From the NCBI GenBank assembly GCA_036395115.1, contig DASWDU010000011.1:549-64548 (forward strand): a stretch of 64,000 nt of DNA. Reading direction: 5' to 3'. Positions 2,292 to 42,887 of this stretch are shown piece by piece (the stretch's first letter is position 1; the number at the start of each line of letters is the position of its first letter). A program made the position numbers and the translations under genes. Below the pieces are notes generated by a model. That model saw nothing but the letters and a program-made list of their open reading frames with translations, was not told where the DNA came from and did no database searches. This DNA comes from Thermoplasmata archaeon (GTDB taxonomy: Archaea > Thermoplasmatota > Thermoplasmata > RBG-16-68-12).

Positions 2292-2356
2292 GCGTTCGAT
2301 TCGCCCGTCCCCGTGGCGAAGGATTTTATCTCAGGACCCGTCCATGAGGAAGCGCC

Positions 2357-3469: not shown

Positions 3470-3523
3470 GCGGAAGAGCTGGTCTCGAGAAACCCGACGG
3501 ACCGGCCCGAAACCAGAGGCCGC

Positions 3524-4471
3524 CTAGACGACCTTCACGTCGAGCGCCTTCTCGAGGTTCGGCATCTTGTTCGCCACCGTGAAGAACGGAGATCCGGCGA
3601 ACAACAGCCCGACGGCGCGGCCGTCGTACCCGACGATCGTGCTCCCGGAATCTCCGCCCGCGCTGAAGGACCCGCGCTCGCCCTTGATGATCATCTGGTC
3701 CGTGAAGACGTAGGCGCCTGTCGCGTAGCCCACCCGGAGCGTCGCGCTCGCGTCCACCACCGCTCCGTTCGTGAGGCGCGTCGTGCGGCCGCTCTTCATC
3801 ACCTTCTCGTCGAGCGTCGGCTCGCGGGTCCCCCGCAATCGGCCGATGTTCAGGATGTCCGGGGTCACATCCCGCGCGTCGAACGGGGCCGCGATTGCGG
3901 CGTCCACGAGGTTCGGACCTTCCGGGTCCACCGCGACGTACGTGTCGAGGCGACCGATCACGTCGCGGTCCGTCTTGCCGCCATCGAAGGTGCCGGGCTG
4001 GAGGACCGGATCCCCTTCGACGCCGCGGTTCTCATTCGCGAGGACGTGGTTGTTCGACAAGATGAACGTCTCGCCAGCGTCCTGCACGAGGCACGACATC
4101 GTGCCGGCGGTGATGGCGTAGTGACCGATCGACAAGCCGCCCATCGCGGGACGGACCTTCCGTTGGTAGATCGGCGGGATCGGGCGCCAGATCGAGAACT
4201 CGCCCGCCTCCTCGATGTCCGTCGGCACGCCCTCGATCTCGTCCGGGATCGTCCGACCGTCCTTCACGAGGAGGGGATGGAGCTTTTGGCGGACGTAGAC
4301 CTTCACGACGAGCTCGTCCGTCGGGAAGCTGCGGACTGTGCGGTGGCCGATCCCCACCCCGACGACGTCCGGGTGGGTCGACGGCGTCAGTCCCTCCCTC
4401 TCGATCCCGAGGAGTTGGCACTCGCAGACGAGCTTCGCGTCTTCCGCGTTCGGCGTCATCCCACCCTTCAC
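3524..4471 (-). CDS. S1-family chymotrypsin-like serine peptidase
   Basis: 315 aa with an LSNNHV His region and a GDSGS catalytic serine motif near the C-terminus. The N-terminal ~90 aa form a separate domain (VVGVGIG...VYV...IPDEIEGVPTDIEEAGEF). Confidence 0.75.
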   Translation of the reverse strand: MKGGMTPNAEDAKLVCECQLLGIEREGLTPSTHPDVVGVGIGHRTVRSFPTDELVVKVYVRQKLHPLLVKDGRTIPDEIEGVPTDIEEAGEFSIWRPIPPIYQRKVRPAMGGLSIGHYAITAGTMSCLVQDAGETFILSNNHVLANENRGVEGDPVLQPGTFDGGKTDRDVIGRLDTYVAVDPEGPNLVDAAIAAPFDARDVTPDILNIGRLRGTREPTLDEKVMKSGRTTRLTNGAVVDASATLRVGYATGAYVFTDQMIIKGERGSFSAGGDSGSTIVGYDGRAVGLLFAGSPFFTVANKMPNLEKALDVKVV

Positions 4472-9939: not shown

Positions 9940-11232
9940 GTGACGCTCCAACCCGCCGTCCCGCTCGGCATCAACCGGGAGGACCTGGAACTCCTGTCCC
10001 GGACGGTCTTACGCCTCGGCGGATACGCCGAAGGCCTCTTCGAGTTCCATGACTTCGGGTTCGACAAGGCCTCCTTGCGGGACCACATCACGAACGTTCA
10101 CAAGGCTTTGAAGGAGCTTCGGGAGAACTCGACCTCAGGCGGCATCCCCCTGCGTCCGCCGAACATCCCGCCTGGGGCGTTCTGGGAGGACCAAGGCGAG
10201 GTGTGGAACTACCTGCAGACGCTCCGTTTCGCGGCGGGGGCGACGATGATGACGGAGCAGTTCAGCCCTCACATGCCGCGGGAGAACATCGCGAAGACAA
10301 TGACCGCGAAGGTCTACCGGGAATGCGTGATCGGCATCCTGGACGACCTGATCGACAAGGGGGCGTACTCGTACCTTGAGGCGAAAGACCTGCACCACAT
10401 GGTCCTCAGCACGATGTTCGATCCGGACTTCGATTCGACGTCGTTCATGAAGCGCCTGGTGACGATGCTGCGCCAGGACCAGATCCCTTTGTTCGACTTG
10501 ATCAACAACATCACCCGCGGGTTCAACGTCCTCTGGAACCACGCCCCCCATGGGGCCGACTACTTCTATCAGATGGAGATCATGAACGAACGCGTGGCCC
10601 TGAGCCAGGCCCTGACGATGTACCAGAAGGAACCGAACTTCTCGGTCGGTCGGATGGAGAAGGTCTCGGAGAGCTTCTACGCGCCCGACGACTCAATCAA
10701 TTGGTGGGAGAAGCTCGGCGGGCACGTGAGCGTCGCGAGCGGGCACAACCTGATCGACATGGCCTTCACCGACCAATCGTACGACCTCCGGCAGATGAAG
10801 AACTTCCTCGCAGGATGGTACTACTACGACGCCGCCGTGATCCTGATGGACCACGTGTCGAGCATCCACCAGGACCTCCGGAACGGGATTGCGAATCTCT
10901 CGCTCATCGCGATGCGGCAGAAGGAGCTCCGCGAGCTGACATCCCTGAAGAACTACAACCCGCACCTGACGATCGAGGACTACGACGCGCACCTGCGGCG
11001 CATCGCCGACCTCACGTCGATGGGGCTCCGCCTCGCGACGAAGGACATCCCGGACGAGAACCTCGTCTACCCGTTCATGACGATCATGATGCCCGTCGTC
11101 ATGATGGCCGACTGGATCGGGAACCGGGATGACATGATCCATACATTCCTCGAGGCGATCGCGCCCACGGTCAAGAGCGTCGCGGCCAACGGCAAGGTCC
11201 CGATGCGGGCCGTCGCGTCCGTCGCGGATTAG
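9940..11232 (+). CDS. hypothetical soluble protein with a DDLID (DDxxD) motif, immediately upstream of idsA
   Basis: 430 aa, predicted all-alpha, with GILDDLIDKG. No confident family assignment could be made from the sequence. Confidence 0.5.
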   Translation: MTLQPAVPLGINREDLELLSRTVLRLGGYAEGLFEFHDFGFDKASLRDHITNVHKALKELRENSTSGGIPLRPPNIPPGAFWEDQGEVWNYLQTLRFAAGATMMTEQFSPHMPRENIAKTMTAKVYRECVIGILDDLIDKGAYSYLEAKDLHHMVLSTMFDPDFDSTSFMKRLVTMLRQDQIPLFDLINNITRGFNVLWNHAPHGADYFYQMEIMNERVALSQALTMYQKEPNFSVGRMEKVSESFYAPDDSINWWEKLGGHVSVASGHNLIDMAFTDQSYDLRQMKNFLAGWYYYDAAVILMDHVSSIHQDLRNGIANLSLIAMRQKELRELTSLKNYNPHLTIEDYDAHLRRIADLTSMGLRLATKDIPDENLVYPFMTIMMPVVMMADWIGNRDDMIHTFLEAIAPTVKSVAANGKVPMRAVASVAD

Positions 11233-13492: not shown

Positions 13493-14716
13493 ATGGACTT
13501 TCAATTCCTCGGCGGGGCGTCCGAGGTGGGCCGCCTCGGGATGGTCCTCAAGAAAGGGCCGATCTCCCTCCTGTTCGACTACGGGCTGCTCCCGCGAGAT
13601 CCGCCGCAGTATCCGATGCCCGCCCCTCCGGTGGACGGGATGTTCATCAGCCACGCGCACCTCGATCACACGGGGATGATCCCGTGGGTGACCCGCCGCC
13701 AGGACCTCGACGTCGTGCTGACCCCGTCCACGGCGGACGTCACGGACCTCCTCCTCCAGGACAGCCTGAAAATCGCGGATGCGGAGGGCTTCGACGCGCC
13801 GTTCGACGACGGCGATCTGCGGGGCGCCCGGCGGCGCTTCAAGACGATCGACTTCGGGGACAACGTCGACATCGGCGACCTCGAGGTCACCGCGCATCCG
13901 GCGGGCCACATTCCCGGCGCGACGATGTTCGAGGTGAATGGGACGGAGACGACCGTCTTCACGGGCGACCTGCACACGCTGACGACGGACCTGGTGTGGG
14001 GCGCCCGGCCGGTGAAGTGCGACACGCTCTTCATCGAGTCGACGTACGCGGGGCGCCAGCATCCGGAGCGGCTCAAGTCGGAGCATGCGTTCCTGAAGAA
14101 GATCGAGCAGGTCGTGAACCGCGGGGGCCTCGCGCTCGTACCCTCGTTCGCCGTGGGCCGGACGCAGGACATCCTCTTGACGCTCGCCAAGGCCCGCCAC
14201 GAGGTCTGGCTGGACGGGATGGGGAAGAAGGTGAACTCGATTTACGTCGAGCACCCGGAGTACCTCCGGTCCGTCAAGGCCCTGCGGAAGGCGATGAACC
14301 GCGCGCGCGTCGTGCGAGGTCGGAGGGACTCGCAGCTCGCGTTGCGGGGCGACGTCATCGTCACGACGAGCGGGATGCTCGATGGCGGGCCCGTCTTGCG
14401 GTACATCGAGGAGATCCGGGAGGACCCTCGCAGCGCGATCCTCTTGACGGGCTACCAGGTCGAAGGCACGAACGGACGGCGGCTCATCGACGAGGGCGTG
14501 ATCGAACTCCACGGCGTCACGGTCGACATCAAGTGCGAGTGGCAGAAGTTCGATTTCAGTGCCCACGCGGGCCACGACGACCTCGTTCGGTTCATCGAGG
14601 GATGCGATCCGCAGCGGGTCGTCCTGATGCACGGGGAGAACCGCCAGATCTTGGCGGACGCCCTCGAAGGACGCGAGGTCCTCCTCCCTCTGGAAGGCCA
14701 GTGGCACACATTGTGA
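13493..14716 (+). CDS. metallo-beta-lactamase / beta-CASP family nuclease (CPSF-like)
   Basis: HAHLDHTG zinc motif plus beta-CASP motifs (TESTYAG, HAGHDD). 407 aa. Confidence 0.8.
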   Translation: MDFQFLGGASEVGRLGMVLKKGPISLLFDYGLLPRDPPQYPMPAPPVDGMFISHAHLDHTGMIPWVTRRQDLDVVLTPSTADVTDLLLQDSLKIADAEGFDAPFDDGDLRGARRRFKTIDFGDNVDIGDLEVTAHPAGHIPGATMFEVNGTETTVFTGDLHTLTTDLVWGARPVKCDTLFIESTYAGRQHPERLKSEHAFLKKIEQVVNRGGLALVPSFAVGRTQDILLTLAKARHEVWLDGMGKKVNSIYVEHPEYLRSVKALRKAMNRARVVRGRRDSQLALRGDVIVTTSGMLDGGPVLRYIEEIREDPRSAILLTGYQVEGTNGRRLIDEGVIELHGVTVDIKCEWQKFDFSAHAGHDDLVRFIEGCDPQRVVLMHGENRQILADALEGREVLLPLEGQWHTL

Positions 14717-14800
14717 CCGGATGCCCCGGACATCGGCCGGGCTTCCTCTCGTTGGCGGGTCGTGCCGCTCCGTCGAGCGAGGACCGCAGGGGCGGACCCG

Positions 14801-16018
14801 TCAGATGCCGACGTTCCTCGCGATCATCGCCCGCAATGCCTTCCCCACGTACTTCAGGAGCCGCGGGTCTTCCTTGATCAGGGCCCAACCCACCTTCGAC
14901 GGGAAGTCAATGTCGCCCTTTCTCTCGATCAAGTCGCGGATCTCGGGACTGTCGAAGATGTCGAACAGCTCCTCGAACTGCGCGTCCGTGAGGCGCGCGA
15001 AGCTTTCGTGAATCGCGAGGTCCTTCCGGAGCTCCTTTCCGATCGATCTTGTCCACGCCCGGTGGTAGCGGTGGAGCATCCGCCCGGAACAGTCGTTCGC
15101 CTGGAGGGCCTCGATCGCCGTCCTCGCGGCGAGGTCGGAGCACGTCAGGGCCGTGAAGATGCCACCGCCGGAAACGGCCTTCGCCTGGCACGCCGCATCG
15201 CCGACGATCATGACGTTGTCCGCGTACGTCCGGCGCGGGAATCCGAGGGGGATCCCGCCCGCGATGTACAGGATCGGCTGCGCTCCCTTCGTGTACTGTC
15301 GCACCTCGGGGCGTTGCAGCATTCTCTCGAGGTAGGCGTACGCGTTCCCCTGGCCGACGCACAGGCCGACGCGGGCCGTGTCGCCGCTCGGAATGATCCA
15401 GCCGAAGAAGCCCGGGGCGATGTCGCTCCCGATGAAGAGCTTCACGAATCCCGGGTCGCCGCGCACCCCGGTCATCTCGACCTCGAATCCGGGGAGGATC
15501 TTCTTCGGACGCAGGATGTTGAACCATTTCGCGACGTTCGAACGGACACCGTCGCAGCCCACGAGGATCTTGCAACGCAGCTTCCTCGGCTGTCCGTCCT
15601 GATCGACGACGACCTCGACGCCGCCGTCCTCGCGTCTCGCGGCTTGTGCCTGAGCGCCGAGGAACGTGTGCGCGCCCTTCCGGACCGCGTCCGTGGCGAT
15701 GGCGCGGTCGAACATCGCCCGTTGCACGACGACGGCCTCCGTATCGCGCCCGTCGATGACGAGCTTGCGGCCCGAAGGCGAGTACAGCTCCGCCCCATGG
15801 ACCGCTCCGATGATCGTCTCCTTGCAGTCCACGTACTCGAAGACCCGCGGGGTGACGAGGCCGCCGCACTGGATCGGCTCGCCGATCTCGCGGTGTTCCT
15901 CGACGAGGGCGACCTCGTATCCGGCCTTTGCGACCCTGCCTGCGAGGTAGCCCCCGGCCGGCCCGGCACCGATCACGATGACATCGAAGGAGCGCGCCGA
16001 GGAGACCACGTGCGGCAT
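14801..16018 (-). CDS. geranylgeranyl reductase family oxidoreductase (second paralog)
   Basis: Internal ATG (MPHVVSSARSFDVIVIGAGPAGG...) gives 405 aa. The start shares one base with the upstream TrmB stop (TGATG). The 5' extension of the 678-aa ORF is rejected. Confidence 0.8.
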   Translation of the reverse strand: MPHVVSSARSFDVIVIGAGPAGGYLAGRVAKAGYEVALVEEHREIGEPIQCGGLVTPRVFEYVDCKETIIGAVHGAELYSPSGRKLVIDGRDTEAVVVQRAMFDRAIATDAVRKGAHTFLGAQAQAARREDGGVEVVVDQDGQPRKLRCKILVGCDGVRSNVAKWFNILRPKKILPGFEVEMTGVRGDPGFVKLFIGSDIAPGFFGWIIPSGDTARVGLCVGQGNAYAYLERMLQRPEVRQYTKGAQPILYIAGGIPLGFPRRTYADNVMIVGDAACQAKAVSGGGIFTALTCSDLAARTAIEALQANDCSGRMLHRYHRAWTRSIGKELRKDLAIHESFARLTDAQFEELFDIFDSPEIRDLIERKGDIDFPSKVGWALIKEDPRLLKYVGKALRAMIARNVGI

Positions 16019-16020
16019 CA

Positions 16021-16761
16021 CTCCTTCAGGTTCATGATGATCTCGAGGAAGTTCTCCAGGTGCTTCGACAGCGACGCGTTGTCGGTATACCCGCACGCGG
16101 ACAGGTCCGGCGCGGCGATGAGCGCGGACGCGCCGTCCACGATGACGTCCGTGGCGATGAGACCCTTCCGGTGGACGGACGACGCTCCCTCCGGAATCTT
16201 CTGCCCCGGCTCCGTGATGATCGTGAATCGGATGCCGCGGGCGATCGCCTGCTCGATTTTCTTCCCCACGTTCTCCCGGATCTCCGAGAACGTCGGCGTC
16301 GACACGATCACGTTCTCCATCGACTGATCGATGAGCTCGCCGACCTTCTCGAGGACGCGCGGCTTCGTCACGATCGTGTAGACGAGCTGCGGCTCGCCTT
16401 TCGACCTCAGGACTTCGTGGAGCAGGTCGAGCTTGGTGAACGTGTCCTCCAGGTGCTCGATGACGCGGCCCTTGACCTTCCCGGGCGCCTCCGGCTTGAA
16501 GATCGTCGGGCGGCCCCGGGTCGAGATTGCAAACCCTTTCTGGCAGAGGCTCTGCAAGACCTTGTACGCGGAAGTGCGCGGAATGTGCGCCGTCTCCGCG
16601 ATCGTCTCCGCGCTCCCGTAGCCGTGGGCCACGAGGGCGATGTACCCGCGCGCCTCGTATCCCGAGAGCCCGATCGATTCGAGGGTCCTCGTGGCCCGAT
16701 CGAACTCCGCCTCCAGGTCCGCACCCCCGGCGAGGAGCTTCGACAAGTCTTGCGGAACCAC
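16021..16761 (-). CDS. TrmB-family transcriptional regulator
   Basis: N-terminal wHTH (LESIGLSGYEARGYIALVAHGYGSAETIAETAHIPRTSAYKVLQSLCQKGF) and a TrmB C-domain. GTG start at 16761 inferred (VVPQDL...). Co-oriented with GGR2. Confidence 0.7.
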
Positions 16762-16791
16762 GATTCCACGATACCCTAGGGCGCCATTTGA

Positions 16792-16806
16792 CCTTTTCGA
16801 AAGGGC
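16792..16806. promoter_or_regulatory. inverted repeat CCTTTTCGAAAGGG in the divergent TrmB / DUF835-protein intergenic region
   Basis: Near-perfect palindrome with a TTTCGAAA core, between the divergent starts at 16761 and 16873. Candidate operator. Confidence 0.25.
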
Positions 16807-16872
16807 CGCGTGCGGGCCGGGCGGTCGACCGGCACAAGCCTTTATCCCGACGGGACCTTTCCGTCGCGGTCC

Positions 16873-19326
16873 ATGGGCTCGGTGCGACCGGCCGGCTTGG
16901 CCCTCGGGGCCGCCCTCCTCCTGTTCTGGGCCGTCGTCGGGCCGTCGATCGGACAGAATCCGGCGGGCCGGATGATCGTCGCGACGGACTACGAGCTCTT
17001 CGGGACCTCGGACTTGCGCGGCGGCGGTCACGTCTCGTGGACCTTCACGGGATCGAAGGCCGCGGAGTTCCGCGCGAGGCTCATCCACATGTTCGACGAG
17101 TACGACATCGTCCCGCGTGGCTTCCCCGAGTCCGGCGCCTCGATTCTCGCGAACCGCGACGGGCGGCTCGACGCGGCGGAGGGACTCGTCTATACGGACC
17201 GCCTCGAGGTGATGCTCGAACGCCCCCCGGCGACAACGCTCCCCGGCACACCCGTGCAGTACATGAACCTCGGTCGCTTCAATCTGCGGGAGGACGATCC
17301 GAGCGATCGGGACACAGGTTTCCGGCGGAGCACCGCCGGCCTCGCGGGGGAGGATCTCAATTCCACTGCCGATGTCGTCATCCGCTTTCTCTTCGAGGCC
17401 TATTCGACCACGGCGAACGCACGCGTGCCGCTCCCGACGCCGGTCTTGGCGGAGGCTCCGTATGCCTTCTTTTCCTATGAGGCACAGCAGTCGCCGACGA
17501 TGACGCCGTCGGGCTTTCTTCCGGACGTCTGGCCGTTCTTGCACGAAGGCGGTTGGCACAACAATACCACCGCGGACGGGAGGAAAGCGATGTGGGCGGG
17601 CAACGACACGACCGGCGCGTACGACAACAACACCGTCGCCGCCACCCGGACGACCGCGGATCCCGCCCTCGCGCGCGCTTCGTCGTTCTACGAGCCGTTC
17701 GATCTACGGTTCGCATCTCACGCGTGGGTGACGTTCAACTACACGGGCCAGGTCGCGGACCCGAACGACCGGCTGCATCTGCAGATCGCGCAGGAGCCTT
17801 CCTTGACGATATGGACGAACCTGTCGTTCGGGCCATCGTTCGATCTGCCGTCGACGCCTGTCGGCTCATGGACGAACGCGACCGTGGACCTGGACGCGTA
17901 CCTCGGGCAGCGCGTACGGCTCCGCCTGAACTTCACTTCCGACGGGACGGGGAGCGGGCCGGGCTTCTTCATCCGAGATTTCGCCTTGCACGCGCCGGCC
18001 GACTACGAGGGCGAAGTCGTCGAGACGGATTCGCACTACCTGGTCGGCACGCTCAGCTTCTCCGATCCCGCACTCGTCTCCGGCGGCACTCAGCTCATCC
18101 GAACGCCCGGGGGCGAGATCCTGTACTACACGTCGGCGTGGGACGCGAGCGCCCCGGCTCCCGACTCAATTCGCTTCCGCACCCTCGACCTCACCGAGAA
18201 CCCGCAAGTCCTGTTCGGAGTCATGCTCGTGGCGTCGCACGCCATCTCGCGTCTCCAGAACGGCGCCTACCACCGGTACCGCGAGTCCCATCCGAGCGTT
18301 TTTCGGCCGGCGGTGCACAGGGTGAAATGGCTGCACAACATCGGCCGCGTCGCGATCGGTGTGCTGATCCTCTTCTACTTCGTCCCGACGGCCCTGGGAG
18401 TGGTCGGCCTTCGCACCTTCGTCTCGGGGCCCGCATACTGGTTCCTCTCCTTGACCCTCGCCTTGCTCGTCGGATTCGGCACGCGGGCGTACTACCGGCA
18501 GAGACTCGAGGAGGCGCCGCCTCCCGTGGTTGGCGCTCCACCCATCCTCGAGGGGCGAGAAGAGGTCCCGCCCTCGCCCGAACCGGTGGCCGTGTTCGCC
18601 CACTGCACGCACTGTCTGCGCGAGGTGCGGGAAGGCGACAAGACGTACAACTGCACGTGCGGCGCGGTGTACCACCTCAGCTGTGCTGCCGGCCTGATGC
18701 GTTGCGCGAACTGCCGAAAACCGATCGCCCTCGAGGTCGTCCGGGAGAAGAAGGTCGTCTCGATGCGGTGCGAGTCGTGCGGCGAGCTGCAGGTGATCCC
18801 GGAGGGCGCCGATCCCCGCGCGGTCACATGCGAGCACTGCGGCGGCCGCCTCCGCCACCTGGACACGGGCAAGCGGTACCTGATCGTCGCGAACAATCCC
18901 GCGATCGCGTTCGCGTGGATGCACGACCTGACGCAGGGCGGCAAGCCGTCCCTCTGCTTCTCGCCTGCGGCCCCGGACCGGCTCCGGCTCGAGTTCGGCG
19001 GCGAGGACGTGCAGTTCTTGCAGGTCTCCTCGCAGGCGCCGAACGCAATCGATCCGCACAAGCTCGATCCCGCCGGGCTGCGGGCGATCCTACCGCTCGC
19101 GCGGCAGGGCAAGGGTGGTGTCATCCTGTACGACGGCCTGGATCAGATCGTCTCGGACGCGTCTCTGGGCGACGTGATCCGCTTCCTCCGAAAGGCCAAC
19201 GACATGGCGTTCGTGCACGGGGTCACGGTGGTCGCGCGCGTCTCGCCCGGCCTTCTCCCGGACCCGGACCTCCGGCGGCTTCGCGCGGAGTTCGACGAGT
19301 ACATGGACCTCTCGGCCCAGATGTGA
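16873..19326 (+). CDS. large exported membrane protein: signal peptide, ~480-aa extracellular region, TM segments, cytoplasmic four-CxxC zinc-binding module and a C-terminal DUF835 domain
   Basis: ATG MGSVRPAGLALGAALLLFWAV is followed by a hydrophobic signal. TM helices lie around aa 500-560. The Cys cluster is CTHC...CTCG...CANC...CESCG...CEHCG. The C-terminus (RYLIVANNP...VILYDGLDQIVSD...) matches the DUF835 pattern. Confidence 0.65.
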   Translation: MGSVRPAGLALGAALLLFWAVVGPSIGQNPAGRMIVATDYELFGTSDLRGGGHVSWTFTGSKAAEFRARLIHMFDEYDIVPRGFPESGASILANRDGRLDAAEGLVYTDRLEVMLERPPATTLPGTPVQYMNLGRFNLREDDPSDRDTGFRRSTAGLAGEDLNSTADVVIRFLFEAYSTTANARVPLPTPVLAEAPYAFFSYEAQQSPTMTPSGFLPDVWPFLHEGGWHNNTTADGRKAMWAGNDTTGAYDNNTVAATRTTADPALARASSFYEPFDLRFASHAWVTFNYTGQVADPNDRLHLQIAQEPSLTIWTNLSFGPSFDLPSTPVGSWTNATVDLDAYLGQRVRLRLNFTSDGTGSGPGFFIRDFALHAPADYEGEVVETDSHYLVGTLSFSDPALVSGGTQLIRTPGGEILYYTSAWDASAPAPDSIRFRTLDLTENPQVLFGVMLVASHAISRLQNGAYHRYRESHPSVFRPAVHRVKWLHNIGRVAIGVLILFYFVPTALGVVGLRTFVSGPAYWFLSLTLALLVGFGTRAYYRQRLEEAPPPVVGAPPILEGREEVPPSPEPVAVFAHCTHCLREVREGDKTYNCTCGAVYHLSCAAGLMRCANCRKPIALEVVREKKVVSMRCESCGELQVIPEGADPRAVTCEHCGGRLRHLDTGKRYLIVANNPAIAFAWMHDLTQGGKPSLCFSPAAPDRLRLEFGGEDVQFLQVSSQAPNAIDPHKLDPAGLRAILPLARQGKGGVILYDGLDQIVSDASLGDVIRFLRKANDMAFVHGVTVVARVSPGLLPDPDLRRLRAEFDEYMDLSAQM

Positions 19327-19327
19327 T

Positions 19328-19897
19328 TCAGACGTCCGGCGGGCCGCCCCAACGCGGACCCAAGCCGTGCTCGACCCCGAGGTGGTCGAGGATCCGCGCG
19401 ACGACGAAGTCGACGAGGTCGTCGATCCGCTTCGGCTTGCCGTAGAACCCCGGAGAGGCAGGGAGGATCACGACGCCGAGGCGCGCGAGTTTGAGCATGT
19501 TCTCCAGCGTCACGGCGCCGAGCGGCGTCTCCCTCGGCACGAGGATGAGCGTCCTCCGCTCCTTCATCGCGACGGCCGCGGCCCGCGTCACGAGGTTGTC
19601 CGCGATGCCCGTGGCGATTTTCGCGAGGGTCGTGCCGCTGCATGGGACGACGACGAGGGCACGGAAGGGATGCGATCCGGACGCGGGTCCGGCCGCGAGA
19701 TCGTCCCCGGTATAGATCGTCCGGGCGCCCGCGGCGAACTCTTTGACAGAGAGCCCCGCCTCGACGTCGATGACGGCCTCCGCGTCTCGCGTCACGATGA
19801 GGTCCGCGCGGTCGCCGAGGGCCTCGATTAGTCGACGGGCGTACACGACGCCGGAGGCTCCAGTGACGCCCAGCAGGATTCGGGACTCCGGGCCCAC
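19328..19897 (-). CDS. ubiX: flavin prenyltransferase UbiX (PAD1 family)
   Basis: ILLGVTGASG flavoprotein motif. 189 aa, with typical UbiX conservation. Confidence 0.85.
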   Translation of the reverse strand: MGPESRILLGVTGASGVVYARRLIEALGDRADLIVTRDAEAVIDVEAGLSVKEFAAGARTIYTGDDLAAGPASGSHPFRALVVVPCSGTTLAKIATGIADNLVTRAAAVAMKERRTLILVPRETPLGAVTLENMLKLARLGVVILPASPGFYGKPKRIDDLVDFVVARILDHLGVEHGLGPRWGGPPDV

Positions 19898-20069
19898 GCC
19901 GGCGGAAGAGGCTCGGCGTGCGGATGAAGGTTCCGCGCCGGGCTATCGCCGTACGGCCATGCCGACGAGGCCAGGAAGCGGTTCCTTGGCAGGTGCGTCA
20001 TCTTCATCGCGGGAGGCGGCTGTAGGCGGCGGGGCGAAAAGAGTAACTTCTCTGGAGGAATTTCCGGGC

Positions 20070-20579
20070 GTGCCTCGCGTGCGCGTCCGTCGCGCGACCC
20101 TGAAGGACTTGGACCTCCTCGTCCGCCATCGGCGCGGGATGTGGGAGGCGGTCGCCGACCTGTCCGTGCGCGATCTCGACGCCGCAGACCGCGTGTACCG
20201 ACGCTGGGCCCGGGCGCGCATCCGTTCCGGGCGGCTCGTTGCTTTCATCGTCGAGCAGGATGGCGTGGCGGTGGCGAGCGGCTGCGTGTGGATCATGGCG
20301 GTCCAGCCGAGACCGCTCTGGAAAGGCACCCGCGCCGCGTATCTCTTATCGATGTTCACTGAGCCGAGCCACCGCGGCCGAGGGCACGCGACACGGGTCG
20401 TCCGCGCCGCCGTCCGCTGGGCGAAAGCGCGGGGAATCGACGTGATGCTCCTCCACGCGTCTCGGTTCGGCGAGCCGATTTACCGGAAGGAAGGTTTCGA
20501 GCCAACCACGGAGATGCGGCGCTTTCTCTCCACGCAGCGCCGCCGACGCCTGCCGAACCCGTCTCCGGCCTCCCGGTAG
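20070..20579 (+). CDS. GNAT-family N-acetyltransferase
   Basis: GTG start preceded by GGAGGA. Acetyl-CoA binding region (HRGRGHATRVVRAAVRWAKARG). 169 aa. Confidence 0.7.
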   Translation: MPRVRVRRATLKDLDLLVRHRRGMWEAVADLSVRDLDAADRVYRRWARARIRSGRLVAFIVEQDGVAVASGCVWIMAVQPRPLWKGTRAAYLLSMFTEPSHRGRGHATRVVRAAVRWAKARGIDVMLLHASRFGEPIYRKEGFEPTTEMRRFLSTQRRRRLPNPSPASR

Positions 20580-20794
20580 TTTCCTCCGGTGGGAGCACGC
20601 AACCTTCGTGTGAGCGAGAATTCGTATTGCAAGCCATGGAAGCGGAGTGGTTTCGCCGTCGTTCGCTCCCCATAGCATGCCGGAGCTCCGAGTCTTGGCA
20701 GAGTGACGTTAACCAGTCAGAAAGGTCTCGGCGTCCCTGGAGGGACCCTTCCTCCGTTAATGCGGGCCGGTTGCCACACAGGGCCATGCTGCTG

Positions 20795-21280
20795 TTACGC
20801 CTTGGTAACGGACGTGATTGTGAGGTTCGACCTGTCCGTGCTCGGGCAGGGCCATCCGCCGTGGTCGGGCCCGTTCACCGAGCTGCTTCTCGTAATTTGA
20901 GAACCCAACGGTACGAAATACTGATTCTTTCCCGCGGAATCGCCGTTCACGTAAAACATCACGCTAGCGAAGCCATTTGCATTGCCCGTGTTGACCAGAG
21001 TGAATGTCCACCTGAATGTGTAGTAATATGGACCGAAGAGGCCGCAGCCCGACTGTGTGTATGCGGCGTCAGTCAAGGTGATCTTGGGCGTGGCTGCAGA
21101 TTGCTGTGCGAGCGGGATTCCGAATCCCCAAGCCAATCCCACGATGACAACAGCAACTATGGCAATTACGACGTAGCGAGCAATGTGGCTCGGCCTCAGC
21201 GGCGCTCGTGGGACGTCGGGCGGCGGCGGTTGTTCGTACGGTGGCTCATAAGGTGGCTCCGAAGGTCCAGAAGGCTGCAT
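20795..21280 (-). CDS. hypothetical single-pass membrane/exported protein with a Pro-rich cytoplasmic N-terminus
   Basis: 161 aa. PPYEPPYEQPPPP repeat, then one TM helix, then a beta-rich ectodomain. Lies in a locally low-GC (~52%) islet. Confidence 0.5.
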   Translation of the reverse strand: MQPSGPSEPPYEPPYEQPPPPDVPRAPLRPSHIARYVVIAIVAVVIVGLAWGFGIPLAQQSAATPKITLTDAAYTQSGCGLFGPYYYTFRWTFTLVNTGNANGFASVMFYVNGDSAGKNQYFVPLGSQITRSSSVNGPDHGGWPCPSTDRSNLTITSVTKA

Positions 21281-21473
21281 CTCCTCCTCCGGAGTGTATC
21301 GCGACGCGGTGTACTCAATGGTTTCGGTCGTTTCGCGGCGAGGGAAAACGGCTCACAATCAAGCTGCACCACAAGACGGACCGAGCTTCGCTCTCGTGCC
21401 ACGGTGGGAACGCATTCAAGACCTTGCGACCGAGTGCGGCAATGATGCTATGCGACAATTCCCCGCCCCAAGC

Positions 21474-21500
21474 CTTCATATACGACCTCGATTTATGAAG
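21474..21500 (+). promoter_or_regulatory. AT-rich TATA-like elements (CTTCATATACG / ATTTATGA) upstream of rps19e
   Basis: 15-40 nt upstream of the ATG at 21515, consistent with a short-leader archaeal promoter. Confidence 0.3.
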
Positions 21501-21514
21501 CCCGAATTCACCGA

Positions 21515-21988
21515 GTGTCGACGATGACGACCGCCTACGACGTGCCTCCCGCCCTCTTGATTGAGCGGCTGAAGGACCACCTGCAGAAGGAGGGCAAGAT
21601 CAAGCCGCCGGAGTGGGCCGCGTTCGCCCGCACGGGGGTGCATACGGAGAAGGCGCCGACCCAGAGCGACTGGTGGTATCGGCGAGTCGCGGCGGTCCTC
21701 CGAAAAGTCTACCTCCGAGGGCCCGTCGGCACGACGCGCCTCGCGGCGGAGTTCGGCGGGCGCCGGGACGATGGCTCCGCCCCCTACCATCCGCGGCGCG
21801 GGTCGCGGTCGATCGCACGGGAGGCGATGCAGCAGCTCGAGTCGATGGGCCTGCTCGCGAAGACGGACAAGCGGGGCCGCTCGATCAGCCCCCAGGGCCG
21901 GAAACTCCTCGACGCCTTGTCCCACGAGATCCTGAAGGAGCTCGCCGTGACGATGCCGGAGCTGGCGAAGTACGCCGGAGGGCCCTGA
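21515..21988 (+). CDS. rps19e: 30S ribosomal protein S19e
   Basis: Full-length match to S19e ([16 protein letters not shown]...[13 protein letters not shown]). Confidence 0.9.
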
Positions 21989-28871: not shown

Positions 28872-29153
28872 TCATCCGCCCGAAACGACTCCGATCACGC
28901 AGATCCGCTCCCCATCGCGGAGCGGTTCATCGATCGGGATTGGGATGTCGCCTCGGACGAGAAGGTGCGCGTCCGGCGGCAGCCGCAGAGCCTTCAGGAG
29001 ATCCTCGCCGGTCGCATCCGACTCCAAGGCCACGGCGACCTCCGTTCGGCGGGGAACGAGCTCGGCGACGATTTGCACGACGCGGACCGAGGGCGGCGCC
29101 GGTCTTAAGCGTTCCTTCCTTCGCCTCCTGGTCGGAACGCTTATCCGAAGCAT
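28872..29153 (-). CDS. ThiS/MoaD-fold (SAMP-like) small beta-grasp protein ending in Gly-Gly
   Basis: C-terminal ~70 aa VRVVQIVAELVPRRTEVAVALESDATGEDLLKALRL...VRGDIPIPIDEPLRDGERICVIGVVSGG* follows the ThiS/MoaD pattern. Start assigned to an internal ATG just before the tRNA. The longer ORF would run through tRNA-Ser. Confidence 0.55.
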   Translation of the reverse strand: MLRISVPTRRRRKERLRPAPPSVRVVQIVAELVPRRTEVAVALESDATGEDLLKALRLPPDAHLLVRGDIPIPIDEPLRDGERICVIGVVSGG

Positions 29154-29173
29154 CGTTTTCCGGATGAACGACT

Positions 29174-29255
29174 GCCCAGGTCGCCTAGCCCGGTAGGGCG
29201 GCGGTCTCGAAAACCGCTGGGTTACCCCTCGCAGGTTCAAATCCTGCCCTGGGCG
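29174..29255 (+). tRNA. tRNA-Ser (anticodon CGA), class II with a 13-nt variable arm
   Basis: Folded by hand. The 7-bp acceptor GCCCAGG/CCTGGGC, D-arm GG, anticodon stem GCGGT/ACCGC with loop CTCGAAA, a GGG-TTA-CCC variable hairpin, and a T-arm GCAGG-TTCAAAT-CCTGC all pair as expected; the discriminator is G. Confidence 0.85.
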
Positions 29256-29416
29256 CTTCACCCATAGACCTGGTGCCAATTTCCGTATTAGCGTTACGAC
29301 CTGCACTAAGTGGCGCCCCTGCCCCGCATACAGGCTAGGCCCCGCGCCTTCGTTTGCTTGTCTGATGGCAGGAAGCTTTAGGCGCGGGCTCCTCCATCGC
29401 GCTCCGCGTCATACAT

Positions 29417-29659
29417 ATGCCAACTTCCTGGCAGGCTTTCCAAACTGATTGGGGGAATTTTCTGAATTGGCTGAATTCGGGCCCAGGACGTGCTTTCTGC
29501 GGCACGCTACTCGTACTAGTGATTTTGTTCATCGTCTTCTATGTCGCCACACGCCTTCTGGGCAGGGCCCATCGTGCCCTGCTCCCGGAAGCCTCCGAGG
29601 ACGAATCCGGGGTGGAAGGAGCCCCTCGGCCAGAGGACAACAAGGACGGACGAGAGTAG
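29417..29659 (+). CDS. small hypothetical membrane protein (80 aa) inside the tRNA-flanked insert
   Basis: One predicted TM helix (FCGTLLVLVILFIVFYVATRLL) and an acidic tail. Only weakly supported. Confidence 0.3.
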   Translation: MPTSWQAFQTDWGNFLNWLNSGPGRAFCGTLLVLVILFIVFYVATRLLGRAHRALLPEASEDESGVEGAPRPEDNKDGRE

Positions 29660-29748
29660 TTTCACGGCGGGGAGCGTCCCCAAAAACCGGGTTGCTTTCG
29701 AGGAATGGGGGCGGCTCCGTTGCGAATCTGAGTCCGGATCAGCCGAAC

Positions 29749-29826
29749 GGTCGCCTAAGCCCGGTAGGGCGGCGGTCTCGAAAACCGCTGGGTTACCCCT
29801 CGCAGGTTCAAATCCTGCCCTGGGCG
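29749..29826 (+). repeat. direct repeat: 77/78-nt copy of the 3' portion of tRNA-Ser(CGA); matches 29179-29255 with one indel
   Basis: GGTCGCCTA(A)GCCCGGTAGGGCGGCGGTCTCGAAAACCGCTGGGTTACCCCTCGCAGGTTCAAATCCTGCCCTGGGCG. The copy lacks the 5' acceptor strand, so it is not a functional tRNA. This is the att-site-like signature of integration into a tRNA gene. Confidence 0.8.
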
Positions 29827-29883
29827 CTCCGGTGCGAGAGTGGACCGGTCTGGCAGACTCGGGGCCGCGACTGCGGCGCTCGC

Positions 29884-31797
29884 CTACTTCAGGTGCGTGT
29901 CGAACCAACGCAGGTACGCCTTCAGCCGGGCGATTCGGTGCTTCGGCTTCCCCGCGCGCGAGAGATCGTGATTCTCTTTCGGGAACAGGACCATCTCGGC
30001 CTCTTTGCCGTAGTACTTCAGGGCGGTGAAGAACTGGATCGCCTCGACGTGCCAGCAGCGAAGGTCTTCGAACGAATGGACGAGGAGGAGGGGTGTCGTG
30101 ACGTTCCTGACGTAGCGGAGCGGCGACTTCGCCAGCGTCGTCTCCTCGTCGTCCCACGGGTCAACCCCGGTCTGGTCGCGACCGAAGTACGGCCCGATGT
30201 CGCTCGTCCCCCAGAACGTCCACCAGCTCGAGATCGAGCGGTCCGTGACTGCGGCCTTGAACCGGTCTGTGTGGGTCACGACCCAGTTCGTCATGAACCC
30301 ACCGTACGAGCCGCCAGCGACCGCGAGCCGCTTCGCATCGACGAACGGATAATGAGCGATCGCGTAATCGACGGCCTCCATGAGATCCTGGTAATCCCGT
30401 TCGCCGTAGTGCTTGCGGAGGTCCGCGAACGCCTCTGTGTATCCGTCGCTCCCCCGCGGATTCGTGAAGAGGACCGCGTACCCCCTGGCGGCGAACACCT
30501 GGAATTCGTGGAGGTAGCTGTAGCCGAATGCGGTCTTCGGCCCGCCGTGTACGTAGAGGATGGTAGGGACCTTGCCCCGCTTCGACGGCCAGAGGATCCA
30601 ACCTTCGACGTCGACCCCGTCGCTCGCGCGGAAGGTGAAGTGCTCCGGCTTCCGGATCGCCAGATTGGACCGCGCCTCATCGTTGAACGACGTCACCTTG
30701 CGCGGCTCCCCGTCGAATCGGTACAGTTCGGGGAGCGACATCGATTCCATCCCGGTGAAGATCAGGGCGCCGTCGTTCACCTGAAATGCCTCGACGCACC
30801 GTTCGCCGCCGACTAGGCGGTTCACGCGGCGATCCGCGACGTCGAGCGAGCAAAGATGCACGCCGCCGCCCTCCGCCGCGACGAAGTAGATGCGGTCGCC
30901 GACCCACTTCGGATCCGGGCTCATGCCGCCCATGCGGACGTCGCAGTTCAGCGCGTTCGACAGGTTCCGGTCCATCGACTCGAGGCGCTCCGGCGCTCCC
31001 CCTTTTGCGTCGACGACCCACAGGTGTTCGTGCGAGGCGAATCCGCGCGGCAGGTCGTCTCCCCGGAACACGAGCCGCCGGTCGTCCGGGGACCAGCCCA
31101 CGCTCGCGATCTCCATCGTATGTTTCGTCAAAGGGATCGTCTTCCGCGAGGCCACATCGAGCACGAATACGTCTTGGAGGTACGGCCGCACGTCTTCCAT
31201 CTGGGCGACGTACGCGACGCGCTTCCCGTCGTGCGACCACGCCGCCTTCGTGACGTCGAACTCCCCCTTCGTCACCTGCTTGACGGCCTTCGTGGCGAGG
31301 GTCAGGATGAAGGCGTGCTTGCGGAGATTGTAGATGAAGCCTTTGTCGTTGAACCAGAAGTTGATGCGGCGGATCGTACGGACATCCTCGTCGTCTTCGC
31401 CGACGTTCGACAAGAAGAGCACCCGCTTCCCGTCCGGCGACCACGCGGCGCCTTCAATGCCCTCTTCGCGCCGGAGCAAGAGGGTCGCCTCGCCGCCGTC
31501 TGTCGGGATTAGGTAGAGCGCGTTCCCCTTGTCGTCTTTCCCCATCTCCCGCTTCGACGTGAACAAGATCCGCTTCCCGTCGGGGGAGATCTTCGGGGCG
31601 CCATCCTTGCCGGCCGTCGTGAGCTGCCCCGGGGCCGTCCCGTCGAGCGGGACGATCCAGATGTTGCCCTCGTACTCGTCCTTGTCCAGCAGGGCGCGGT
31701 GCACGGAGATCGCCGCGAACGTCCCGTCCGGCGCGAGGCTCGGTTCGGAGAGCATCGCGTAGGCGGCGAGATCCTCGGGTTCGACGGGCTTGGCCAT
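29884..31797 (-). CDS. S9-family serine peptidase (acylaminoacyl-peptidase / prolyl oligopeptidase-like) with an N-terminal beta-propeller
   Basis: Internal ATG MAKPVEPEDLAAY... gives 637 aa. The C-terminal alpha/beta hydrolase carries GGSYGG around the catalytic Ser. The 130-aa 5' extension of the ORF is rejected. Confidence 0.8.
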   Translation of the reverse strand: MAKPVEPEDLAAYAMLSEPSLAPDGTFAAISVHRALLDKDEYEGNIWIVPLDGTAPGQLTTAGKDGAPKISPDGKRILFTSKREMGKDDKGNALYLIPTDGGEATLLLRREEGIEGAAWSPDGKRVLFLSNVGEDDEDVRTIRRINFWFNDKGFIYNLRKHAFILTLATKAVKQVTKGEFDVTKAAWSHDGKRVAYVAQMEDVRPYLQDVFVLDVASRKTIPLTKHTMEIASVGWSPDDRRLVFRGDDLPRGFASHEHLWVVDAKGGAPERLESMDRNLSNALNCDVRMGGMSPDPKWVGDRIYFVAAEGGGVHLCSLDVADRRVNRLVGGERCVEAFQVNDGALIFTGMESMSLPELYRFDGEPRKVTSFNDEARSNLAIRKPEHFTFRASDGVDVEGWILWPSKRGKVPTILYVHGGPKTAFGYSYLHEFQVFAARGYAVLFTNPRGSDGYTEAFADLRKHYGERDYQDLMEAVDYAIAHYPFVDAKRLAVAGGSYGGFMTNWVVTHTDRFKAAVTDRSISSWWTFWGTSDIGPYFGRDQTGVDPWDDEETTLAKSPLRYVRNVTTPLLLVHSFEDLRCWHVEAIQFFTALKYYGKEAEMVLFPKENHDLSRAGKPKHRIARLKAYLRWFDTHLK

Positions 31798-31881
31798 GCG
31801 GAGGGCGAGCCCGTCGCGTGTGATAAATTCTGCTCCCACGCCCGCAAGGCTCATCGCCCCCGCCGACTTGTCCCCGAGGCG

Positions 31882-41680: not shown

Positions 41681-42142
41681 GTGGTCGTGCCCGCATCCGC
41701 GGAATCCCCGGACGAGCCGGTCCCTGCCGTCAGCGCGATCGTTTTCCGGGGCGATGAGGTCCTCCTCGTGAAGCGGGCATCCGAACCGAACAAGGGGCGG
41801 TGGAGCATCCCGGGGGGCGTCCTCGAAGTCGGAGAGACGATCGAGGAGGCGGCGATTCGAGAGACGCGCGAGGAGACGAACGTCGTCGTGCGCCCGCGGG
41901 AGGTGTTCGGCGTGAGCGATTACATCGAGAGGGACGGGTCAGCCGTCCGATGGCATTACGTCCTGATCGACCTCCTCTGTGACTACGTCAGCGGAGATCC
42001 GTTCCCGGCGACGGACACCGAGAACGCCCGCTTCATCCCGCTCCGAGAACTCGGGGAGTACGAACTCGCGCCCGCCGCACTCGAGGTCGTCCAGGAGGCC
42101 GCAAAGGACCGCGGGAGCGCAGCGCTTTCGGGCCCGCGCTGA
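41681..42142 (+). CDS. NUDIX hydrolase
   Basis: NUDIX box GGVLEVGETIEEAAIRETREETN. GTG start. Confidence 0.75.
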   Translation: MVVPASAESPDEPVPAVSAIVFRGDEVLLVKRASEPNKGRWSIPGGVLEVGETIEEAAIRETREETNVVVRPREVFGVSDYIERDGSAVRWHYVLIDLLCDYVSGDPFPATDTENARFIPLRELGEYELAPAALEVVQEAAKDRGSAALSGPR

Positions 42143-42167
42143 TCTGCGAAGCCTCTTGTGGGCTCGG

Positions 42168-42887
42168 ATGCATTCGCGTCCCGTGGCGGTTCCATCCGGC
42201 ATCGCCCGCAAGATCCGGACGATCCTCGACGTGCAGGACGTCCCGATCGCTCCACCCGCACGACGCGGAGGCCGCAGCTGGCTGCTGCATCCCCGCCGGC
42301 TCGAGGTCCTGCTCGCGTCGGCCGCGTATCCGGGCCTGCACGAGCGATCCGCGTCCCGGCTCCTGCTCCTGCCGCTCCCGTCGCTCCGATACCATGTGGA
42401 GCAGCTTGTGGCCCAAGGATTCCTCGAACGTCGTCGATACGCCGGTCGCACGTCCCTCTTCGCGTCCGGGATGTATCCTCGGGCATCCGAGTGCTTCCTC
42501 GTCGCGTGGGAGGACCGCATCGATCGGGCGATCCTCGTCGCACTCGCGCGAACGCCGAAGGCAGCGGCCGACGCGATTGCGAAGGCGGCCCGCATCTCCA
42601 CCCCGGGGGCCGTGGCAGGGCTCCGGCGACTCGCCGCGATTGGCGCCGTCCGGCTCTCTCGGGACCGCGTGCCTCGCGCATCCCTGACCGCAGGGTGGCG
42701 TGCGTTCGAACGAGACTGCCACGTGCGGACCGGCGCGCGCCTCGATCGCTTCGTCGCCCTGTTGCAGCGCGACGACCTGCACCCGGTCGTCGAGCCTCTG
42801 GACCGGAGCCGCGTGCGCATCACGGTCGACGGGCCACGCTCCCGGATCCGTTTCGTGCTGCCGCTCGATCCGATCGCTCGAGGGTAA
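42168..42887 (+). CDS. hypothetical protein, possible HTH regulator
   Basis: Internal ATG of ORF 41979..42887. Arg/Ala-rich with HTH-like segments. Weakly supported. Confidence 0.4.
   Translation: MHSRPVAVPSGIARKIRTILDVQDVPIAPPARRGGRSWLLHPRRLEVLLASAAYPGLHERSASRLLLLPLPSLRYHVEQLVAQGFLERRRYAGRTSLFASGMYPRASECFLVAWEDRIDRAILVALARTPKAAADAIAKAARISTPGAVAGLRRLAAIGAVRLSRDRVPRASLTAGWRAFERDCHVRTGARLDRFVALLQRDDLHPVVEPLDRSRVRITVDGPRSRIRFVLPLDPIARG

Follow-up and report, generated by a model that had tools for sequence, protein, structure and literature searches.

In a 64,000-nt stretch of DNA from a Thermoplasmata archaeon (GenBank assembly GCA_036395115.1, contig DASWDU010000011.1, positions 549 to 64,548), hereafter the window, an intact class II tRNA-Ser(CGA) gene is followed by a direct copy of itself that lacks the 5′ end, and the two copies enclose about 0.49 kb of DNA. 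The repeat and its insert probably represent the relic of a tRNA-targeting integrative element that has lost its integrase. On this reading the locus is a known kind of feature, namely an ordinary scar and the outcome of element decay. Several observations speak for it. The order of an intact tRNA upstream and a 5′-truncated direct copy downstream is found also in an independent assembly. The DNA downstream of the tRNA is hypervariable among relatives, whereas the upstream flank is syntenic. Furthermore, recombinase-bearing relatives at the same tRNA share the left end of the insert (locus L072; related loci are numbered with the prefix L) or a hairpin within it (L068, L111). The structure comprises the following parts:

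29174–29256, plus strand: intact class II tRNA-Ser(CGA) gene (ARAGORN, Rfam), the repeat copy on the side of the left attachment site (attL); the repeated portion is 29179–29257
29255–29329, plus strand: left end of the element, class B; its terminal inverted-repeat motif CGCTTCACCCATAGAC... abuts the tRNA 3′ end
29417–29659, plus strand: open reading frame ORF80, a gene for an 80-amino-acid (aa) single-pass membrane protein, element cargo (translation, homologs)
29643–29726, plus strand: conserved imperfect hairpin of about 80 nt, directly 3′ of the ORF80 stop codon
29712–29748, plus strand: right junction of the insert, which may be a decayed right terminal repeat
29749–29828, plus strand: partial tRNA-Ser copy (starting at tRNA position 6 and running 2 nt past the 3′ end, with an additional A), the repeat on the side of the right attachment site (attR)
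29829–29883, no strand: spacer up to the stop codon of an S9 peptidase gene; the first ~40 nt are unique, and homology to the S9 3′ flank of relatives restarts near 29870

The tRNA-Ser(CGA) at 29174–29256 (plus strand) is the single tRNA that ARAGORN calls in the 64 kb. It scores 56.5 bits with Rfam and its minimum-energy fold is a cloverleaf (z = −3.2), so that the intact class II tRNA-Ser named by an earlier reading of these letters, the sequence-only reading, was correctly recognized. A repeat search of the window returned an exact direct repeat of 71 nt (29187–29257 and 29758–29828) with a spacing of 571 nt, and BLAST and alignment extended it in the 5′ direction to 29179–29257 versus 29749–29828, i.e., 79 versus 80 nt. 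The second copy differs by one extra A and lacks tRNA positions 1–5, in agreement with the single indel and the missing 5′ end that had been proposed for it. Two copies of the repeat exist in the 64 kb, and none would be expected in shuffled sequence. ARAGORN did not call the second copy as a tRNA. Its Rfam score of 32.6 bits lies slightly over the gathering score of 29, with 3 + 3 model positions deleted and two non-standard acceptor pairs, and both acceptor and D-arm are broken. Five of the seven acceptor pairs are unable to form from the sequence, and in the minimum-energy fold a strand of the D-stem serves as a 6-bp pseudo-acceptor (z = −1.0, no better than shuffles). Lacking a complete 7-bp acceptor stem of its own, the second copy does not form a tandem tRNA pair with the first, the arrangement that would have spoken against a scar; judged from its letters it is a predicted non-functional tRNA, a pseudo-copy. 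The JGI contig L135 (3300012201 Ga0137365_10022918), assembled independently, is 99.96% identical to the window over 4839 nt (2 mismatches) and contains both tRNA copies, likewise 571 nt apart. We hence regard the two-copy structure as real and not as an assembly artefact.

The enclosed segment (29257–29748, 492 nt) has a GC content of 0.589 compared with the window mean of 0.660, and 1.6% of all 492-nt windows have a GC content as low; the lower GC that had been noted for it is thus confirmed. Its left end is 85–87% identical over 71–73 nt to the sequence following the tRNA in L072, L075, L024 and L012 and, equally, to the sequence following the second repeat in L011. Compared with the integrase-bearing L072 element, the first 73 nt of the insert show 85% identity. 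A hidden Markov model (HMM) of right ends, taken from three elements with an integrase, found its best match in the window at 29283–29255 on the minus strand (E 0.049), abutting the tRNA.

ORF80 has homologs, detected by tblastn and hmmsearch, in three groups of loci (L004/L101/L076/L133, L006/L047/L117 and L057/L066/L097), where they are placed equivalently at about +110 to +140 past the tRNA. Its GC content at third codon positions (GC3) is 0.62 compared with 0.85–0.95 in host genes, and we counted this atypical value in favor of an element origin. No Pfam family matched ORF80, and a search of 5.8 billion proteins returned nothing for it. Both the 80-aa transmembrane frame and the 65-aa antisense frame of the sequence-only reading are present in the segment; its description of the former as weak does not hold, as this small family recurs in related elements. 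The hairpin is 78–84% identical over 51–76 nt in at least nine loci (L006, L047, L117, L097, L066, L057, L111, L068 and L104). Its consensus TTCGCGGCGGGGAGCGTCTCCAAAACCTAGTTGCTAGCGAGGAATGGGGCCGCTCCCCCGC is kept across elements with differing left ends, with or without the small reading frame, and is shared with the integrase-bearing L068 and with L111, which holds an integrase remnant. RNAalifold predicts 24 pairs with 1 compensatory change, i.e., minimal covariation support; the fold z-score in the window is unexceptional (−1.0), and no Rfam family matched. The hairpin might serve as a terminator or bind a protein, or else represent an antisense RNA. At the right junction we found a weak 23-nt similarity to the right end of L136 (p = 0.017, uncorrected), and between the right and left ends of the insert there is no significant inverted repeat.

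The sequence-only reading had also stated that no integrase lies in the window. Pfam searches of 38 window ORFs revealed no recombinase domain, and tblastn found no integrase-like reading frame crossing either tRNA copy, which fits a relic and not an active element. A comparison of the insert with phage and plasmid collections gave no matches, and queries of IMG/VR with the tRNA 3′ end, with the hairpin and with both classes of element ends (A and B) were equally negative; the database check that had been proposed for insert and repeat thus had no positive outcome.

Related loci were gathered by scanning for 37 nt of the tRNA, taken from its 3′ part; this yielded 12 loci in species-representative genomes and at least 119 in JGI metagenomes. 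When the 45 nt after the tRNA were used for clustering, 130 downstream flanks fell into at least 35 sequence clusters among the matches listed. In the same set, the upstream 600 nt are syntenic in nearly all related loci (about 100), with 65–93% nucleotide identity. Even the closest relatives listed (flank identity 89–93%) differ wholly from the window in what lies between the tRNA and the S9 gene, as seen in L001, L071, L079, L042 and L022. A native 0.5-kb spacer common to all relatives, as the sequence-only reading had considered, is hence not what these flanks show, and the uninterrupted junction of tRNA-Ser and S9 gene that it had hoped for in close relatives did not appear among these matches either. 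Since the upstream side is conserved and the downstream DNA is hypervariable, the tRNA-Ser(CGA) site is an integration hot spot.

The DNA found at this site in L022, L067, L140/L141 and L137 includes defence-type genes. Among the cargo are a putative methylase with an NPPW motif and a large ATPase, both judged by sequence alone, as well as an N6_Mtase/Eco57I protein, a SIR2-like protein (faint Pfam match), Nmad3, radical-SAM/SPASM and DUF4062. Of 132 loci (those of the genome and metagenome scans plus L001), 30 start no more than 150 nt upstream of the tRNA and 6 end no more than 150 nt after it; it seems that assemblies break off on one side because co-occurring strains have this tRNA in identical form. 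In L124 (oriented 726–809) the tRNA-Ser(CGA) lacks its first 29 nt and ~100 nt of the upstream flank, and is joined directly to conserved sequence of the side on which a SAMP2-like gene lies. It has the look of a deletion that put the tRNA out of function, or else of a chimeric contig. We rejected L124 as an attR copy, because its truncated tRNA joins the native upstream flank, i.e., it marks a deletion. In L002 (S9 identity 77%) the synteny around the tRNA is broken; a TnpB/Cas12f-like gene lies nearby, together with an island that contains DUF5131, a faint QueC match and an N6_Mtase/Eco57I protein (coordinates 2063–3292 and 14132–21914).

At the same tRNA, relatives have elements whose sizes range from 1.3 kb to over 8 kb and which often lie in tandem. 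This family is bounded by a 16–18-nt repeat of the tRNA 3′ end, typically of 17–18 nt, together with terminal inverted repeats of roughly 35–45 nt. A second exact copy of the last 16–17 nt of the tRNA (AATCCTGCCCTGGGCGC, which begins in the T-loop) was found 1.3–3.5 kb downstream of the tRNA in L015/L031, L072, L084/L115 and L069, and in L011 the second copy consists of 11 nt plus trailer. Directly ahead of each second copy stands the same sequence as directly behind the tRNA, but reverse-complemented. Moreover, each second copy is followed by the left end of a next element, from which it follows that the elements are stacked in tandem. The terminal inverted repeats are significant in L031 (score 34, null maximum 19) and in L072 (score 29, null maximum 21); in L115, an ungapped terminal alignment of 44 nt scores 23, within the null range (maximum 24). 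L015/L031 are 1.6-kb elements that are free of integrase, with good terminal repeats and a PD40-repeat gene as their sole gene.

A tyrosine recombinase of about 330 aa adjoins one terminal repeat and points outward, and its gene ends about 6–35 nt ahead of that repeat. In L072 it reaches 44.4 bits to PF00589, and it is present also in L068 and L136. The L068 gene is intact up to the contig end, which cuts it, and those of L136 and L137 are intact; C-terminal remnants occur in L115, L084, L111, L062/L028 and L130/L046. A protein database holds 62 members of the recombinase family, typically of 320–340 aa. The otherwise full-length L072 gene has an in-frame TAA at 2745–2747, and is probably a pseudogene or affected by a sequencing error. 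Upstream of the tyrosine recombinase, L068 (oriented 3448–3969) and L136 (8365–9285) encode a serine recombinase with a Resolvase domain. The recombinase adjoins the tRNA on the opposite strand in L130, L046, L062 and L028 and the distal repeat in L072, L068, L115, L084 and L111, a placement that could reflect two insertion orientations or in situ inversion between the terminal repeats.

A complete member of 7.8 kb occurs in a different tRNA gene, tRNA-Arg(TCT), at positions 1843–9747 of L138 (NCBI GCA_030157145.1, JASDBE010000268.1, a 57.5-kb contig). It carries a Prim-Pol gene, small ORFs and the tyrosine recombinase of the family, and is flanked by an 18-nt direct repeat of the tRNA 3′ end and by 44-nt inverted repeats that are 77% complementary, with the terminus TCGACCCATAG. 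This terminus is common to L138 and the elements in tRNA-Ser. Because the same terminus flanks the L138 element in tRNA-Arg, we regard CTTCACCCATAGAC after the tRNA-Ser of the window as derived from an element and not as the native trailer. We had considered 'CTYCACCCATAGAC' as a native tRNA trailer, of which distant relatives have degenerate versions; this candidate was rejected, as the sequence recurs inverted at the right ends of elements and flanks the tRNA-Arg element.

From these features we may outline how the structure could have arisen. A mobile element would have entered the tRNA-Ser(CGA) gene by recombination in its 3′ part, so that the intact tRNA at 29174–29256 would be the attL-like left junction, in which the 3′ part of the tRNA and the following CTTCACCC... 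were delivered by the element. The 79-nt partial tRNA at 29749–29828 would then be the displaced right junction, similar to attR. Both junctions may be the work of a tyrosine recombinase, or of homologous recombination via a tRNA fragment on a circular intermediate. The remaining 0.49 kb would keep the left terminal repeat, the small membrane-protein gene and the conserved hairpin, with the recombinase gene and nearly the whole right terminal repeat lost. Such a small size might result from internal deletion or from aberrant excision followed by re-insertion. For the unusually long repeat, one possible route is an aberrant excision that captured tRNA positions 6–66 and lost the right end; re-insertion may then have occurred by the recombinase at the T-loop core or by Campbell-type homologous recombination through the tRNA homology. 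Either way of re-insertion would yield the observed order, with the extra A in the right-hand copy. The junction of an empty site would read as the intact tRNA joined to ...GGGCGCTCCGGTGCGAGAG, and that of a circle as ...GATCAGCCGAAC joined to GGTCGCCTAAGCC...GGGCGCT and then TCACCCATAGAC. The relic presumably no longer moves, except if a recombinase encoded elsewhere in the genome were to act on it. Aberrant excision with Campbell-type re-insertion is the route known from specialized transducing phages. At this locus the model is purely inferential; it would explain the long piece of host tRNA, the lost end and the order of an intact followed by a 5′-truncated copy.

How well does a relic account for what is found? 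An intact tRNA with a 3′ repeat lacking the 5′ end, foreign composition and variability among relatives (GC, GC3 and at least 35 clusters) and homologous parts in integrase-bearing elements at the same site elsewhere (L072; L068, L111) are all in agreement with it; an integrase gene or fragment inside or beside the repeats, which might also be looked for in such an element, is missing from the window. The attL/attR-type scar that the sequence-only reading had proposed thus gains support from the recombinase-bearing relatives, the variable downstream DNA and the non-canonical second copy. Of the two origins suggested there for the segment, the remnant is favored, and the miniature non-autonomous derivative is less likely. 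Several observations speak against a relic, though. The repeat of 79 nt is atypical compared with the 16–18 nt of family members, and a comparably long second copy is seen only in L069 (tRNA positions 5–82) among the matches listed, where it has diverged apart from a perfect terminal 17 nt. Perfect identity over 71 nt in a copy that is not under selection calls for a recent event or for gene conversion, and this sits awkwardly with a heavily decayed element. Furthermore, close relatives among the matches listed offer no clean empty site, and the searches gave neither a free circular form nor a viral contig. At 29712–29748 a right terminal repeat is not recognizable at significance, and the right-end HMM misses it there; tblastn with the family integrase detected neither the gene nor a fragment in insert or window.

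The structure might instead still be mobile, as a miniature non-autonomous element whose attachment site is a long stretch derived from the tRNA. A family recombinase encoded at another place in the genome would act on it in trans, and ORF80 and the hairpin might hold it in place as an addiction-like module. The perfect 71-nt identity of the repeats, the intact left end and ORF80, the existence of short integrase-free members with good terminal repeats (L015/L031) and the wide distribution of the recombinase family in these soils would suit such an element. We nevertheless consider it unlikely. A miniature inverted-repeat element should have both terminal repeats intact and occur in multiple copies per genome, yet here the right repeat is unrecognizable and the 64-kb window has a single copy, with no near-identical one among the 131 related loci listed; also, both near-identical assemblies carry the insert, so that no polymorphism of presence and absence was seen. 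Alternatively, the 0.5 kb might be the ordinary DNA downstream of the tRNA, with the partial copy arising from replication slippage or illegitimate recombination. In several relatives ORF80 and the hairpin indeed lie directly downstream of the same tRNA where no second long tRNA copy exists, and the lack of a recombinase would be in line with native DNA. However, the motif TTCACCCATAGAC after the tRNA recurs inverted at the far end of recombinase-bearing elements and also flanks the element in the tRNA-Arg of another genome, which marks it as element-derived. In addition, relatives with 89–93% flank identity have entirely different DNA at the site, and a tandem duplication would have repeated downstream sequence too, which is not so here. 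Native DNA with a local duplication is hence quite improbable.

An even smaller probability applies to a transposon-type, casposon-like insertion, in which the inverted repeats would be transposon ends and the tRNA repeat a target-site duplication from staggered cleavage. Relatives do have terminal inverted repeats that abut a repeat of near-fixed length (16–18 nt), and they are arranged in tandem and may point either way with respect to the tRNA; casposons at tRNA-Leu share these traits, their duplication measuring 14 nt and solo inverted repeats also occurring (PMC4779613). Against this stands the gene content of the related elements, which is confined to tyrosine recombinase, resolvase, Prim-Pol and cargo. 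Their sole recombination enzymes are the tyrosine recombinase and, in L068 and L136, the serine recombinase, and neither Cas1 nor PolB is among the element genes listed or scanned. We hence rejected a casposon, for which 0.49 kb would also offer no room. Moreover, a fixed stagger does not agree with a repeat of 79 nt in the window and of nearly full length in L069. Relatives combine inverted repeats with a 16–18-nt repeat, and the window has the left repeat only, with a duplication of 79 nt. Finally, two strain variants might have been joined by the assembler through their shared tRNA sequence. Many co-occurring strains do have an identical tRNA, and among 132 contigs there are 30 whose start lies within 150 nt of this gene. 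But L135 was assembled from a different metagenome with the same structure and 2 mismatches in 4839 nt, and the second copy has a unique 5′ boundary and an indel, so that an assembly artefact can be given hardly any credence.

As a relic of an integrative element, the locus resembles what is described from other archaea. Remnants that have degenerated and lack an integrase are commonly documented at archaeal tRNA genes, as is integration in tandem (PMC3718332, PMC8371274, PMC6563490). With elements of Sulfolobus the window shares a tRNA gene as target, a scar beside an intact tRNA, incomplete or degenerate elements and the loss of the recombinase. In many Sulfolobus cases the integrase is of the spindle-shaped virus (SSV) type: integration splits its gene, which overlaps the tRNA. 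By contrast, the recombinase gene of the family described here stays whole, and the host belongs to a mesophilic soil lineage of Thermoplasmata. The self-partitioning arrangement is not seen, since the integrase ORF is whole in L072, L136, L137 and L138 and stops before the terminal repeat and core. There is likeness also to the cryptic integrated elements of Thaumarchaeota and to tandem integration by tyrosine-recombinase elements (PMC6563490; review PMC8371274): attachment repeats are short (a median of 17 bp in Thaumarchaeota, compared with 16–18 nt here), tRNA genes are targeted, arrays re-use one site and some members have no integrase. Unlike these short repeats, the repeat of the window itself measures 79 nt, and terminal inverted repeats of 35–45 nt that abut the attachment-site (att) core, as seen in our family, are not mentioned in the text searched of these two papers. 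Family 2 casposons of Methanosarcina and Aciduliprofundum (PMC4779613) likewise target the tRNA 3′ end and show inverted repeats beside a short direct repeat, tandem arrays, solo terminal repeats and both orientations. The elements related to the window are, however, much smaller (1.3–8 kb), encode a tyrosine recombinase instead of Cas1/PolB, and have a repeat length that varies in the window and in L069.

Long terminal inverted repeats that abut the att core possibly constitute a novelty at the level of the family, which is not demonstrated for the window. We may speculate, as a doubtful proposal, that the relic of the window belongs to an undescribed family of small elements of soil Thermoplasmata in which a tyrosine recombinase acts on transposon-like inverted-repeat ends of 35–45 nt with the terminus TCGACCCATAG and on a T-loop core of 17–18 nt, inserting into tRNA-Ser(CGA) and tRNA-Arg(TCT) in either orientation and building tandem arrays that gather defence genes. 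As part of the same proposal, ORF80 and the hairpin might form a self-preserving, toxin/antisense-like module that would explain why a 0.5-kb piece survived.

The tRNA copies and the insert are embedded in genes and signals of the host:

28872–29078, minus strand: SAMP2/ThiS-like small-modifier gene, host flank and conserved neighbor upstream of the tRNA (Pfam, synteny)
29134–29151, plus strand: motif GGAACGCTTATCCGAAGC upstream of the intact tRNA, a putative promoter
29884–31854, minus strand: S9 family peptidase gene, 656 aa, downstream host flank (Pfam Peptidase_S9, 6.6e-54)

The SAMP2/ThiS-like ORF has a weak Pfam match to SAMP2 (E 1e-4) and a likewise weak one to ThiS, and at its position a 68-aa gene is called in L001 and L135. 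Genes for a histidine phosphatase and the glycine-cleavage P protein lie further upstream. In the related loci compared, GGAACGCTTATCCGAAGC is retained with few changes within the 60 nt upstream of the tRNA, and it may be the promoter of the intact gene; the partial second copy has no counterpart of it. Between the SAMP2-like gene and the tRNA (29106–29172, minus strand), Rfam reports the glutamine riboswitch below its threshold (21.2 bits, gathering score 35, E 0.066), a match that probably is due to chance. On the other side, no other related locus matched the right flank 29829–29883 in a BLAST search, and the S9-side alignments with L079 and L071 begin at query positions 45 and 54. Homologs of the S9 peptidase bear the name 'S9 family peptidase [Thermoplasmata archaeon]' and stem from metagenome-assembled genomes (MAGs); the related genome contigs originate in soil MAG sets. 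The exact product of 656 aa is on record from ENA ERZ27253182 contig k141_1035907, which includes the window. A version from an NCBI MAG (P0001) has 626 aa and is identical except for a short internal stretch (query residues 321–365) that is 30 residues shorter, a strain or assembly variant. Elsewhere in the window, two plus-strand ORFs, of 430 aa at 9940–11232 and of 302 aa at 41979–42887, found no Pfam match at E ≤ 1e-4; their GC3 is 0.91, which is host-like, and 0.79, respectively.

Taken as a relic, the locus marks a boundary between the core genome and a hypervariable integration hot spot. For annotators this means that the second Rfam tRNA match in the window is a pseudo-copy. The comparison with related loci further reveals a compact family of recombinase elements in uncultured soil Thermoplasmata, with clearly defined ends and with the stretch from T-loop to 3′ end of tRNA genes as target. 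This family is a possible start for genetic tools, or for the study of how genomic islands, including defence islands, build up in archaea.

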